Source: Blastocystis sp. subtype 4
Lineage: Eukaryota
DNA length: 35,865 bases
Reading direction: 5' to 3'
NCBI RefSeq assembly: GCF_000743755.1
Contig: NW_014569464.1
Coordinates: 1 to 35,865, forward strand
A program made the position numbers and the translations under genes. This document shows, piece after piece, positions 8,825 to 28,500 of this stretch (the first letter of the stretch is position 1; each line of letters starts with the position of its first letter). The notes under the pieces were generated by a model. That model ran no database searches. It saw nothing but the letters and a program-made list of their open reading frames with translations, and was not told the DNA's origin.

Positions 8825-9443
8825 AGGAGTTCATTTGTAATGACTTCTCTGCACACTGTCTTACCCGCTTTTTGTACTCTTTTATATTTGTAACGTACAA
8901 CTAACGTTCATATTCCACTCAATCAACTACTGAGGCCGCTGCTGCATTCGCTGGACTCTCTGGATTTGGATCATTTAACAGACTCTATCCATCACAACGA
9001 ATCCTTGCAAATAACTTGTATTGATGTTAATACCATACTAACGGTGTTGATTGGAGACCACTTCTCCTTAATAATATCCAAACAAATCATCCCATCAACA
9101 AAAACTACATTTCAACATCTAAAAACAAATACCATTCGGGTGGAAAATGGGAGTGACAAATCGAACAACTGGTGGATTTGAGGGATAATCGTCTGGAAAC
9201 CGCAGCTGCAAAGCAAACATTCCTCCTACTCATGATAATAACCACTGACAACAACCCTCCCAAGGAGAGTCATCGGGGCCGGAAATCATAGCATCCCATA
9301 GAAAGAGGTCCTCCATCTTTGACGGTGATGCACTGATTCCCTAGGCAATGAAGATGTTCGCTTATCCTTACATAGGGCGGATCATTTTGTAGTTCTTCAT
9401 AATCCTTTAATAACCTTATCTGTGCCCGATTCCGCTTATTCAT
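8825..9443 (-). CDS. Ubiquitin-conjugating enzyme E2, Rad6/UBC2-like
   Basis: [23 protein letters not shown]..., [14 protein letters not shown], catalytic [11 protein letters not shown] and DPNPESPAN. The end shown is the predicted poly(A)-made stop; the genomic in-frame TAG is at 8792-8790. Confidence 0.88.
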
Positions 9444-9516
9444 TCTCCTTAACAGAAAAAACTGAAATACTTTTCAACTATATCCTTTCTCCCTTTGATC
9501 AATCGCAAGTGACTAG

Positions 9517-10627
9517 ATGCATGCCGACAGTATTATCAATTCCATTATGTCGTTTTGGAGGATGGATGCAGTTTCTATCTGTGATCTCATTTTGATTATT
9601 GGTTATTTGCTGATTGGATTGCTGTGTATCATAGCCAAAGTAAAGTGAGTTATCCCTCGATCTTCTCACTCCTCTAGAAAATCCAGATCACAGGCCATTT
9701 TTATCGGAACCACATCATTTCTGAACTATACATTGGCCTTTGGAGTTGGTATATTGGTTTTCTTCGTTTGTTATAATAGGTCGTACAATTCATCTTTGTC
9801 TTTGCTATTTTTATGGTTATCGGATCCAAGTGATTGGCGTATTACCAATCTATCGCTATAACGATCATTTCACTGTCCTTGTGGATATGGCATGTAACCT
9901 ACTCTACTTCTTTTCTATGATGATGTTTGTACTCATTTGGTAGTAGCTGGAAGTGTGTATCATGAATAGTCTTCATTCGGTGAACACACATCCATCAGTT
10001 ACTGTAGTCAATGAGAAACTAGATATTTCGGTCAAGAAAATGTGGGTGATTGTGATCTCTGTGATTCTCTGTATTGCAGTTGTTGCATGCTATTTGCTTG
10101 GATTTATAACGAACAGTCGGATTATTTTCCTCTCTTGACTCTAGATGTCTTCATTTTTGCTTCTGCTGGAATCTTTTCGGTTTTGGAAATTATCCTAATT
10201 GTAAAATGGATTCAGTTCTATAAGAGTATTCGAACGGTAATCTTGTAGGATTTGAGAATTCGCTTCATAGTAGAAATACCGTGATTCCATTGAATGTGAA
10301 ACGAAATCAGATTTGTAGCGCGAATCAACGCTGTAGTCTGTATATTGTGAGCTTGGTAGGTCGTATCAGTCTACAGATTCTCCTTTCCTTCAATTATGTT
10401 CTGCATATTGTAACATTCCTGATTCTCTTTCATTTAGTCTTCGTTTGCTCTCACATTGTTGTATTTACTCTTCACAGAAATTACACCGTTGCTTGCAGCT
10501 GTCATTCACCAACTGTCCTCTATTCATACTTCTCAGATGTAAAAGAGTTGTTTCTTGGTTGATGCATAGTTTTGAAGGATACTTCACAAATCTGCTTACA
10601 TCACTTCAAGATGTCCTTTCTGTATAA
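9517..10627 (+). CDS. Multi-pass (about 7-TM) membrane protein, THH1/TOM1-like
   Basis: Spliced hydrophobic segments include LLYFFSMMMFVLI, LYIVSLVGRISLQILL and LTLLYLLFTEITPLLAAVI. One middle junction is unresolved. The gene may continue into the downstream kinase (see findings). Confidence 0.6.
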
Positions 10628-10746
10628 TATTTTTTAGTCTTGACGTTATATCTGTTTGTTGGTATTACGCCATTTCGGCGACTCCAAATTGCGACACCGT
10701 ACCGCATCTATTGGTTTCGTAACGGCTACTTATAATTACTTTTCAG

Positions 10747-11912
10747 AGCTGTTGCCAAAGGAATCAATAAGTACTACCTTTCTCCATGAGGATACGGAGG
10801 ATGAATTTGTATGGCCGGTAGATCCAACTCATTATCGCCTGGAAGGCTTAGTTGGACATGTAGTTTTTTTTGACTACTTTGAGTGATAGGGGTCCTCGGC
10901 TCTAGTGTATAAAGGAATTTGTGTCGACAACAACCAAGTTGTTGCTGTGAAAGTTGTGAAATTGGATGTTCAGTATTCAAACTTGACTTCTCTACAAAAC
11001 GAAGTAATCACAATGAGACTTTGTCATCATCCCAATATCATTCGTTGTTATAGTTGTTTTATCAGTGGTACCTCTTTATGGATTGTTTGTCCGTACATGT
11101 GTAAAGGATCCTTTTTGAGGATTCTCCAGTATTTGAAGTCGACTTCTTTCATTCGAGAGGGAGAAGGATTTGAAGTATATGATTCTGTTCCATGTCATCT
11201 CTAGGAGTCTGTCGTAGCTTATATTATTTCTGAAACTGCTAAGGGATTGCAATATCTGCATTCTTCGGGTCTGATTCATCGGTTTGCACCTTAAATACTT
11301 TTCATCTATAGTGATATTAAAGCGGGGAATATTCTTGTTGATGCAGACGGACATATATGTATTGGTGATTTGGGTATGGTTGTGAAGGAAGGTCACCGCA
11401 ATTCGACCTTGAACCGACTCCATATCTCAGGTACTCCCTGCTACATGGCTCCCGAAGCTATCACACATAAACACTGTCATTGCCAATCTGACATTTGGTC
11501 GTTAGGAATCACTGCTATGGAACTGTACAAGGGAACCCCTCCTCTTGCGCGGTTTGATAATGAGGAGATTCTTCAATACACTGTTCATGAAGAAGCTCCT
11601 TCTTTGAATTCCTATTCAGATGCGTTCCCAAGGGATCCATCTTCTTCGTTCGATGCATGGATTCATGGTGTATTGCGAAAGGATATGAAAGAACGCTATC
11701 CTATTGGACGAGTGTTGACTCATCGTTGGCTGTTGCAAGCAGAAGAAGGTCGTGAAGCATTAGTCAGATTGCTGCAATCCATTCCTGATCTCCCCGTTCT
11801 TGAGAGTGTGGAAGAGTTGAATCCATGGACTGAAGATCCGAATGCATGTATGCAGGACATATCATGGGATTTCAGTTTACCTCCCGTAAAGGCTATTTCA
11901 ACTAGTGATTAA
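10747..11912 (+). CDS. STE20-family (FRAY/OSR1-SPAK-like) Ser/Thr kinase; start codon not found
   Basis: WPVDPTHYRL, VGHGSSALVY, VAVK, IHRDIKAGNIL, GDLG, GTPCYMAPE and DIWSLGITAMELYKG. There is no in-frame ATG upstream of the catalytic domain. Confidence 0.88.
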
Positions 11913-11965: not shown

Positions 11966-12252
11966 ATGGCGAATAATAACAAAGTAGAAGAAGAATCTGT
12001 CCGAGTAAGAGAAAAAAGATTCGATAAGAAACAGGTTCCATCGAAATGGCTTCTTCTGGTGATTGGATTCTTTATTGTACTTGGACCCTTCACTACTCCC
12101 AATGGTCTATGGTTTTGTTGGTGTCTTTCAGCCTCGTAGGGATGAAGTATTACGCTAATCCTAGATTGACATACATTTATATTAATATGTCGCTCAAAGT
12201 AAAACGGTTGGAACAAGAACAAAAAGAAAAGATGGGAAAGAAACAACAGTAA
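11966..12252 (+). CDS. Small hypothetical two-TM protein (~85 aa)
   Basis: ATG at 11966. One 29-nt intron (12136-12164) joins KWLLLVIGFFIVLGP...WFCWCLSAS to LTYIYINMSLKVKRLEQEQKEK. TGCTTGTT follows the stop. Confidence 0.55.
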
Positions 12253-25521: not shown

Positions 25522-28500
25522 ATGGACTCATCATTTCAAGAATTGTGCAAACTATATCTTCTGCAACTAACCAAAGGTTGCAAGAATGATAGTTGTCGCA
25601 ATATGGATTGTGCACGGAATTGTGTTTGTATGTGTTTTGCATAAATGGTAATGCAATAGATAATGATAAAAAACGAGTTACTTTACGAGCTGTGGAAATG
25701 GCGAAGAATGGGACTCTATTAAGCTGTTCTTCTGTAAATCGGGTTTTTAATACTCCTCTGGACAAAATTGAAACTGCTCTTCCTGAAACAGTGTGGGATG
25801 CTGAAACAAGTGGGAAAGTGTTGAAGTAGGATTGATATATATATTATAATTCCAAGGATTCTATCATTATCATTGAAAGATGAGAAGTATAAGAGAGTGA
25901 AGAGTGAATCGACTGTTTTTGAGAGCTTGCTAAAAGATATGCCTCTACTCTCTCTGGTATTTGCAGCTGCAGGGTTCTACTATGATCATGGTTGGATTGT
26001 GAACTAAGGTTCATGGTTAGGATACTTTGTGTTCACTTCCGATGAAAGAACTCGCAAAGTGATTGAGATTCTTCGGAAACATCAGAGTGTAGGAATTCTG
26101 TTCCATTCTTACTCTAGAAAGCAACAGACATGGAATATACATCATTCTCAAATGCATCTAAAGTACTAAAATCAATTCAAATTCATTTTAGTTGTCTTTA
26201 CTACCTAGTTCAATCATTGACAAAGATCGTCTTGTTCTGATGTCCTATGACCCTTTCATGGAACGCTATGGTCGTTGTGTGTTTCCTTCCACTGTAACAG
26301 TGGATGATGTCTTCTCGCTCAGTATTGATGGGGAATTCAGCAAATGTGATTTGTTGATAGCTCTATCATCTGACCTACAAGCCCTCCAGGATATGACAGT
26401 GACTGAAGGAGTGATTCACTGCAATTCTCCATTTGTTCTGATTCATATTCAGTTATCAGACACACCTCGATTCATTTTTGATTTTGGTTCGAATCTCTCT
26501 GTGGACGAACCATCATATCAAAGTACACAATTCCCTATTAACACAGAGTCCATTACACACAATGTTCACATTTTACACAGTAATTCTGAACTTAATCTCA
26601 TTCTCAATGTATCCTTGATCACACATCATCATAGCTAGAATCAATGTTACGTATGCTGTTCGGATTCAATCCTCTCTTCCATTCCATCCTCTGTCTTTCT
26701 TTCCATTCTCTCATATTCGAATGGTAATCACAAATTCAAAGCAACACTTGACTCCATTTCATTCCATCACTCCATTACTTCTCAACTCCTACAGCTTACA
26801 GAACCTGATGCCGATCCTTCTGATGAAATTGTGAGACTTCTATCGATCACTCACTCCCAGCATCCTTCTCTCCGAGATTCACCTATTGATAGTTTGATTG
26901 AACTCTGCCATTATGAACCGATCGAACCTGCTACTGCTCCTCTTCGGAGACGATATCCTGATTCTACTCGCATGGTAAGGATCATGAAAGATAATCACTG
27001 AACAGAGAGTTCTCCACTGTCATGACATGCGTGGCGGATATCACGAAGATTCTGCTATTTACGTAAATATTCCTGTTTTCTGGCATTGTAGGGAACTCAT
27101 TCTCCTTCATATATGTTCGAATATTGGTCCGTGATTGATCTGTTCGTCTATTTCTCTCATCATTTCATCACAATTCCAATATCCTTCCGATTTCTGAAAT
27201 CCATTTTTATCCTTGATTTCATCCAGCAAGTTGGATCGAAGCAGGTCATCAAAATGGTGTTCCTGTCCTGGGTACCATCCTTCTGGAAGGTCACTCAGAA
27301 GAGTTATTGAAGCAATTTCTCTGTGGACCTGATGCTGACGAACGGCGCGCTCCAATGTATTCAAAATGATTTTTTGTCATATTGTAGGTTTGATTCATTC
27401 TTTACTGAACGTTTGGTGAACATCTGTGATCATGCTCATTTCGATGGATACTTGGTGAATATTGAAATTCCATATATCCCCCCGAATTTACTTCGAATGC
27501 TACCTTCGTTTCTGAAGAAACTACGAGATGGACTTCATGAGTTGAATCCAGATGCTCAAGTTATCTGGTATGATAGTATTGATTCCCGTGGTTATCTCAA
27601 CTATCAAAACAAAGTGTCACGGGAGAATCAGGAATGGTTCCGATGTGTTGATGGTTTGTTTCTCAATTATTGGTGGACTCCCGAAGACCTCAATTCTTCT
27701 GTCTTATTAGCCAAATCAAGGTTGTTGTTCTAAGGAGTTTCAAACATAGAGCAAGAGATGTCTATGTGGGAGTTGATGTCTGGGGCAGAAATACACGAAG
27801 TGGAGGAGGGTGGAATGTACCTCAGGATCTGGCCCTGATTGAATCAAAAGGTTTATCGTGTGCATTGTTCGCAGCTGGATGGATCTTCGAACATGAATGT
27901 AATGGACAAATCAATGAAGTTTATTTCCAAAAAGAAAGACAATTTTGGCATCATACTATTACAGAAGTTACGATGGATGGATCAATGAAACTCCTTACTG
28001 ATCCCTCATGTGTAGCATTCTTTGTATCATAAATATCCTATGATTATTCGTAGTCCAAACAACATGACATTGGTTATTCATTACCCTTGTATTCAAACTT
28101 CAATTCTGTAAGAGATTGATTCATTCTCATATGTTCAGATGCTCTCTAAAATAGAGTATGTGAAGGGTATTCCTCACAGCCTCCATTTCTATTCACCTCG
28201 CTTCACCAGCACACAACCTACACTCGATATCTCATTTACAGGAGGAGCTGAACTTATGGCTGAGTTCAATTCTACGGATGGATTTGATGGAGATGGATGT
28301 CTCCTGATTCAATCACACTTGGGAGGTCGAGTCAAGAGTCAGGAATTACTCTTGTGGAGGTGCAACGACATTATGATCACCGAACCCATTATCATTGAAA
28401 CGGTTATGAAACGTTCATCAAAACACAAATCTCATTGGTCGTGGGTTCTTCGTGGAAATGTGGAAACCGTAGAACCCTTGAAAAAACAGAAATCAGAATT

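Follow-up and report, generated by a model that had tools for sequence, protein, structure and literature searches.

Separate membrane-protein and kinase genes in Blastocystis subtype 4, with likely near-cognate initiation of an AUG-less FRAY-type kinase

We found that a multi-pass membrane protein gene and a kinase gene, which adjoin in a 35,865-nucleotide stretch of Blastocystis sp. subtype 4 (ST4) DNA (contig NW_014569464.1; hereafter "the window"), give rise to separate main RNAs, and that the absence of an AUG from the N-terminal part of the kinase frame is real. Both points are shown by spliced contigs of two runs (X6 and X16), by matching DNA (run X4 and locus L001) and by the BT1 gene model. 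The locus holds two separate genes, and translation of the kinase, which is of FRAY/OSR1 type, probably begins at a near-cognate codon a short way upstream. A preliminary description of this DNA had favoured a fused 7-TM/STE20 receptor-kinase, with a CUG or UUG start of the kinase as its fallback idea; among the readings, that fallback now appears to be the best supported.

The region holds, in order, a minus-strand gene, which we take from its sequence to be ubiquitin-conjugating-enzyme-like, the membrane gene at 9517-10627 and the kinase, which extends to 11912. The membrane gene (plus strand) encodes 299 amino acids from ATG 9517, with six hydropathy peaks above 1.6 over that length. Its seven GT-AG introns, of 28-33 nt, are all missing from one spliced contig (X6 record 9), and a start at ATG 9562, in register with that of the orthologue (L002/L003), is an alternative. 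The TAA stop at 10625-10627 is present in the spliced contig and aligned with the stop of the orthologue, to which the last exon is 50% identical over 28 positions. Pfam gave no match to PF06454 in seven window and four orthologue frames, all of them unspliced pieces, and the protein had an Atlas score of 0.83, below the 0.9 bar, to a cluster with PF06454 in 36% of its members; the "TOM1-like" identity proposed earlier is a lead only.

Several further features of the locus were observed. The start codons of the divergent pair (9443-9517) are only 73 nt apart and one spliced contig covers both genes, which suggests that their 5′ leaders overlap. Between these genes, the plus-strand segment 9480-9513 has a perfect ATATCCTTT, AC 34 nt on and TCCTTAAC just upstream, and is not spliced out in contig X6. 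About 1.2 kb of extra sequence with a short repeat present three times lies between the divergent genes in L003:1020-2270 and L002:2130-2220, and is not found in the window. Near position 2650 of L002 the orthologue has an apparent GC-AG intron, the window counterpart of which is the GT-AG intron 9940-9969. Directly after the kinase, a small conserved hydrophobic gene is found at 11966-12139 (plus strand) and at L003:4737-4915, where its ATG abuts the poly(A) motif of the kinase.

We compared eight of the 24 listed runs with the window, all in the form of contigs, which are blind to exact ends and to rare isoforms. X6 is labelled only as a guessed RNA run; it lacks 11 short introns and is therefore spliced. 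X16 is RNA-seq from a different study, and X4 is a DNA run. In X6 record 9 the stretch 10570-10644 is continuous; it includes the TAA and the donor of an AT-AT intron proposed in the preliminary description, with 41 letters before and 34 after that donor. X6 record 10 spans 10749-11853, lacks three 30-nt introns and is otherwise identical to the window. The membrane gene and the kinase are thus on two X6 contigs with 10645-10748 not bridged, a gap that, like the uncovered stretches of X7, is no proof of absence. X16, a fold-back contig, extends over 10734-11053 with a splice at 10860, and the 13 letters of 10734-10746 are still present in it; a 7-nt microhomology in the fold-back places the end of the molecule near 10727, which is a weak hint. 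The BT1 model, flagged partial, equals the spliced translation of the window from 10746, and together with X6 and X16 it hints at a 5′ end of the kinase transcript at 10727-10749. The pipeline behind this annotation gives preference to introns with RNA support and breaks transcripts where coverage falls to zero (PMC10690189, in excerpt).

The letters on which the proposed fusion had rested were confirmed. Segment 10611-10649 is 39 nt long, begins ATGTCCTTT and ends AT, with a branch-like TCTTGAC within it; 10719-10746 is a GT-AG segment of 28 nt; TGTTTGTT stands at 10653-10660; and removal of both segments opens the frame into the kinase. As introns they fared differently from their letters, since 10611-10644 is retained in spliced RNA, so that the AT-AT minor intron is rejected as the main form, and X16 holds the end of the second segment unspliced, so that this intron is not supported. 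Removal of the second segment would also put Gln where the BT1 model has Glu as its first residue (codon 10746-10748). Segment 10719-10746 probably contains the 5′ end of the kinase transcript. A 25-nt GT-AG intron at 10613-10637, which would give another stop, was not seen in RNA either. The proposed AT-AT donor, ATGTCCTT, has G at +3, a mismatch to RTATCCTT at a position where the ENGase donor of the same window matches. The window has one instance of the combination of a one-mismatch donor, a branch-like site and a nearby end, where 60 second-order Markov simulations give an expectation of 0.37, for a pattern defined after the site was seen. No U12-like donor was found in the membrane gene of the orthologue (L002/L003). 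Among 2,419 Blastocystis genes, about 96% have the poly(A) motif four nt beyond the poly(A) site (PMC4159000, in excerpt), and for TGTTTGTT the predicted cleavage is after 10648; the X6 contig end at 10644, 4 nt short of it, is a weak hint only. The same motif also follows the stop of the orthologous membrane gene.

In the ENGase (GH85) gene, at 27179-27222 (plus strand), a 44-nt AT-AT minor-type intron has a perfect ATATCCTT donor and falls exactly between Pfam GH85 positions 39 and 40; by these sequence features it is probably real. Blastocystis has minor introns, with a median length of 39 nt (PMC5608401 and PMC10639083, in excerpt), which makes the AT-AT idea reasonable even though it fails here.

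Contigs drop rare variants, so a rare isoform could still join the membrane protein to the kinase, through 10611-10649 and the second intron or through one longer intron, and we regard this as very unlikely. Such a join would be in frame, as would nine single-intron joins of 127-187 nt from donors in the last exon, and the 39 nt of the segment equal the median length of Blastocystis minor introns (PMC10639083, in excerpt), of which the ENGase gene probably has an example; however, 10611-10644 is kept in RNA, the two genes are on two contigs, the AT-AT pattern is at chance level and the confirmed introns here measure 28-33 nt. The switch between minor splicing and polyadenylation that had been envisaged also finds no counterpart in the orthologue, where the stop and the poly(A) signal are conserved and the kinase is unfused, with an ATG of its own. 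Furthermore, a search of proteins of 350-2,000 amino acids returned two 359-amino-acid kinases among 778 candidates, a weak count, as the search missed one fused gene model.

The kinase gene (plus strand) consists of four exons. Exon 1 (10749-10859; contigs X6 and X16), the coding part of which is inferred, carries the conserved Trp at 10812. Exon 2 (10890-11174) carries the end of the Gly-loop, the VAVK lysine, alpha-C and the first in-frame AUG, at 11013; exon 3 (11205-11281) and, as far as 11853, exon 4 with the stop (11312-11912) are seen in X6. A fourth intron of the family is missing. The catalytic Lys, the alpha-C Glu, HRD, DLG (for DFG, as in P0010) and APE are all present, and Trp..Tyr-x-Leu precedes the Gly-loop as in FRAY kinases (OSR1/SPAK). 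The best matches among solved structures are OSR1 and SPAK (E values from 1e-49 to 2e-48), followed by STK25 at 9e-39, and NCBI names the protein "STE fray protein kinase" (XP_014528061), in a model that starts at the out-of-frame ATG 10811 and conflicts with the spliced contigs. The activation loop (11421-11438) reads HISGTP where relatives have TFVGTP, the Thr of which is presumably the WNK site; this Thr is also lost in P0027 and P0003-P0005 and is present in L002, L007 and L064. Canonical OSR1 has a C-terminal RFxV-binding domain. About 59 residues follow the ST4 kinase domain, and Pfam found no match beyond that domain, either here or in P0010. Because the activation-loop Thr is absent and no C-terminal domain was detected, the sequence points to a FRAY-type kinase domain that is not a canonical WNK-activated OSR1.

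As had been noted before, the kinase frame has no N-terminal ATG, and the ATGs at 10786, 10801 and 10811 are out of frame; a start at AUG 11013 would lose the ATP-binding loop and the catalytic lysine. It had been suggested that a sequencing indel might hide an in-frame ATG, which could indeed account for the frame by a single missing base. No indel is found at 10786-10812 in the runs that cover it (X1, X4, X6 and X16, that is 4 of the 8 compared, the others being X7, X17, X19 and X20), which show zero differences from the window. X1 is a possible source of the window sequence itself, and X4, X6 and X16 come from three studies. X4 and locus L001 are letter-identical to the window at the start site (L001 with 100% identity along 8,597 nt) and the BT1 model agrees, and we consider the chance of a sequencing or assembly error negligible. 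The other suggested way out, a 5′ exon that supplies an AUG, was not seen in the contigs or in the BT1 model. The specific splice named, from ATG 10562 to 10747, is in frame; it needs a 178-nt intron that starts inside an intron of another gene, and the RNA contains 10734-10746. Trans-splicing at 10746 left no loose end in the contigs, which are a weak test of it, and RNA editing or polymerase slippage as the main form is rejected, as no inserted base occurs in the spliced contigs.

Candidate starts in the kinase frame are the near-cognate codons CTG 10749, TTG 10752 and ATA 10767 (within 10749-10769), with AAG 10758 as a weaker candidate, and an ACG at 10794-10796, which has G at -3 and +4 and lies downstream of AUG 10786. 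The contexts of the first two are middling (CUG with G at -3 and U at +4, UUG with C at -3), and no stable hairpin was predicted downstream of CUG/UUG (folding z 0.56 and 0.71). If the transcript starts at 10744-10749, CUG and UUG would be almost leaderless. The open frame upstream of AUG 10786 is unremarkable, as 251 of 2,000 shuffles were open too. AUG 10786 opens an 11-codon out-of-frame ORF (10786-10821) and was probably the ancestral kinase start, now one base out of frame, since it has a pyrimidine-rich leader like that of the orthologue and is followed by acidic E-D-T-E codons like the N-termini of the family. In these N-termini, Met and acidic residues stand a little ahead of the Trp, and the N-terminus of L044 is the best match to the codons after AUG 10786. 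An ATG was found at the aligned start of four neighbouring genes in two lineages (8 of 8; the starts of NPL4 and HIRA lie outside the compared stretches), so that loss of the AUG is not general in this sample.

We propose that the ancestral start AUG 10786 fell one base out of the kinase frame, and that some scanning ribosomes would initiate at CUG 10749, UUG 10752 or AUA 10767 to give a kinase with a short N-terminal extension. Ribosomes that scan past these codons would mostly be caught by AUG 10786, which would act as a sink and yield an 11-residue peptide, and kinase output would accordingly be low. Ribosomes might also queue behind AUG 10786, with UUG/CUG lying 34-37 nt upstream of it; this guess was suggested by PMC9082881 (in excerpt). 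The 35 alignable residues before Met 11013 are identical to the sister-lineage protein P0027 at 33 positions, compared with 73 of 81 and 164 of 198 downstream, and this identity may predate the loss of the AUG. The coding sequence, of about 1,040 bases, shows a single visible lesion, which falls within the first 26, which we infer to be the sole place where an upstream start can bypass it. In a comparison with the closest variant proteins (P0001/P0025), 4 residues are derived in the window lineage against 1 in theirs, and 2 are ambiguous (p about 0.19), which is a faint sign of relaxation. The kinase clade stands on a long branch in a tree of 19 rows, where there is no supported grouping of the orthologue L002 with this clade.

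The orthologous loci L002/L003 (54% GC) are collinear with the window along their length and are probably ST1. In their kinase an ATG precedes the Trp by 19 codons, and the candidate near-cognate codons of ST4 are not conserved there. Counted as lineage-by-paralogue units for which DNA is available, 6 of 8 have an in-frame ATG (two by way of a predicted 33-nt intron), and the remaining two are the ST4 kinase and a paralogue in L064/L070; the metagenome scan for kinase relatives considered the best 80 of 554. For the 5′ region of the sister lineage, runs X17, X19 and X20 yielded no sequence, genome and viral scans gave no relative, and no short-protein candidate with residues 1-48 was found. 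The AUG-less paralogue, a FRAY gene assigned to ST1 by named cluster members, lies at L064:2636-3821 and L070:3407-4592, with an in-frame ACG at -57 that has A at -3 and a leader with slightly more stable folding than its shuffled versions (z -1.85). The NandII model of the paralogue, marked as partial, has no Met and begins 25 codons before the Trp, and another ST1 model joins it to an upstream WD40/HIRA-like gene by an intron that covers the stretch before the Trp; the "partial" JDR cluster member is the upstream gene and not the kinase. The poly(A) motif of this upstream gene is degenerate, and a real fusion of the paralogue with the WD40 gene keeps a small probability. Over 320 codons, the differences between L064 and L070 comprise 6 synonymous sites and a single replacement site (p = 0.0008, anchored gene models), and those between the AUG-bearing controls L002 and L003 have a ratio of 5:1 (p = 0.004), all of them small counts. 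As far as such substitution patterns can tell, this shows that an AUG-less FRAY gene of ST1 stays under purifying selection among strains; it is a different gene, by which nothing is directly proven for the ST4 kinase. In L044:1190-1360, exon 2 of a paralogue is apparently broken by an insert with stops, either a true disruption or a misassembly.

The main rival reading is that the kinase is a recently arisen pseudogene that is still transcribed: loss of one base after AUG 10786, in the ancestor of those ST4 strains that were sampled, would have silenced a redundant paralogue too recently for decay, and ribosomes would make only the 11-residue peptide. We hold this to be rather unlikely, although AUG 10786 retains an ordinary leader and would capture most ribosomes, at least one other ST4 FRAY kinase has an ATG (L006/L007), and the near identity of the sampled ST4 copies implies that little time has passed, to which the 4:1 excess of derived residues, not significant, may be added. 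A second lesion is not found, however, and the three introns are spliced correctly; moreover, the ST1 paralogue indicates that a FRAY gene can stay under purifying selection after losing its AUG. The gene call of P0027, on a 1,220-nt contig of the sister lineage, begins internally, whereas relatives on contigs of similar size (P0010, P0011 and P0040) were called from an N-terminal Met, which faintly suggests that the AUG is missing from the sister lineage as well. Translation could also start at AUG 10786 or 10801, both one base off the kinase frame, and slip back by one base, or yield a fragment from AUG 11013. Folding and sequence show no evident slippery run or downstream structure, the spliced contigs carry no inserted base, and a fragment without the ATP-binding loop fits poorly with the conservation upstream of Met 11013; recoding or restart of this kind is improbable.

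Non-AUG starts have precedents in mammals, plants and fungi. Our literature search, which covered few subscription journals, found no report of them in Blastocystis nuclear genes or in OSR1/SPAK; the one paper to come up for Blastocystis deals with the mitochondrial genome of a bicosoecid. What is left once the fusion falls away is a kinase that truly lacks its AUG, together with a comparable gene under selection. Going further, we consider it possible, and so far doubtful, that some Blastocystis nuclear genes run without an AUG, that FRAY-type kinases dropped theirs independently at least twice and stay functional, and that the displaced AUG acts as a brake. Kinase dose would then be set by start-codon stringency, and current annotations would conceal a class of AUG-less genes under models that are partial, truncated or wrongly fused. 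Annotation problems are visible here: one model of the ST4 kinase wrongly begins at an out-of-frame ATG and another carries a partial flag, and the ST1 paralogue has a partial model in one strain and, elsewhere, a model that joins it to the neighbouring gene. Earlier work on Blastocystis has cautioned against chimeric models and spurious introns (PMC4159000 and PMC5608401, in excerpt). Two independent losses of the AUG in one kinase family, one of them with purifying selection, would show how a sole non-AUG start can arise quickly from an ordinary gene. If the ST4 kinase is a pseudogene, it would be an ordinary young loss of a redundant paralogue.

Oomycetes carry GPCR-enzyme fusion proteins. 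The locus described here resembles them in that a multi-pass membrane gene adjoins an enzyme gene in a stramenopile, and differs in that no joined transcript or protein was found here and the orthologues are separate. In Blastocystis, 3′ ends are directed by poly(A) signals and stop codons can be made by poly(A) addition (PMC4159000 and PMC5608401, in excerpt); similarly, TGTTTGTT at 10653 closes the membrane-protein transcript, but this gene has a genomic stop, and the oddity lies at the 5′ end of the next gene. A further likeness is to mammalian EIF4G2/DAP5, which has a sole non-AUG start, demonstrated by ribosome profiling, and a short out-of-frame AUG ORF downstream (PMC9082881, in excerpt). 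The ST4 kinase shares with it the lack of an in-frame AUG, a near-cognate codon upstream and a short out-of-frame AUG ORF just downstream; unlike that of EIF4G2, its start is putative, not conserved in the distant orthologue, apparently recent and found in a stramenopile.
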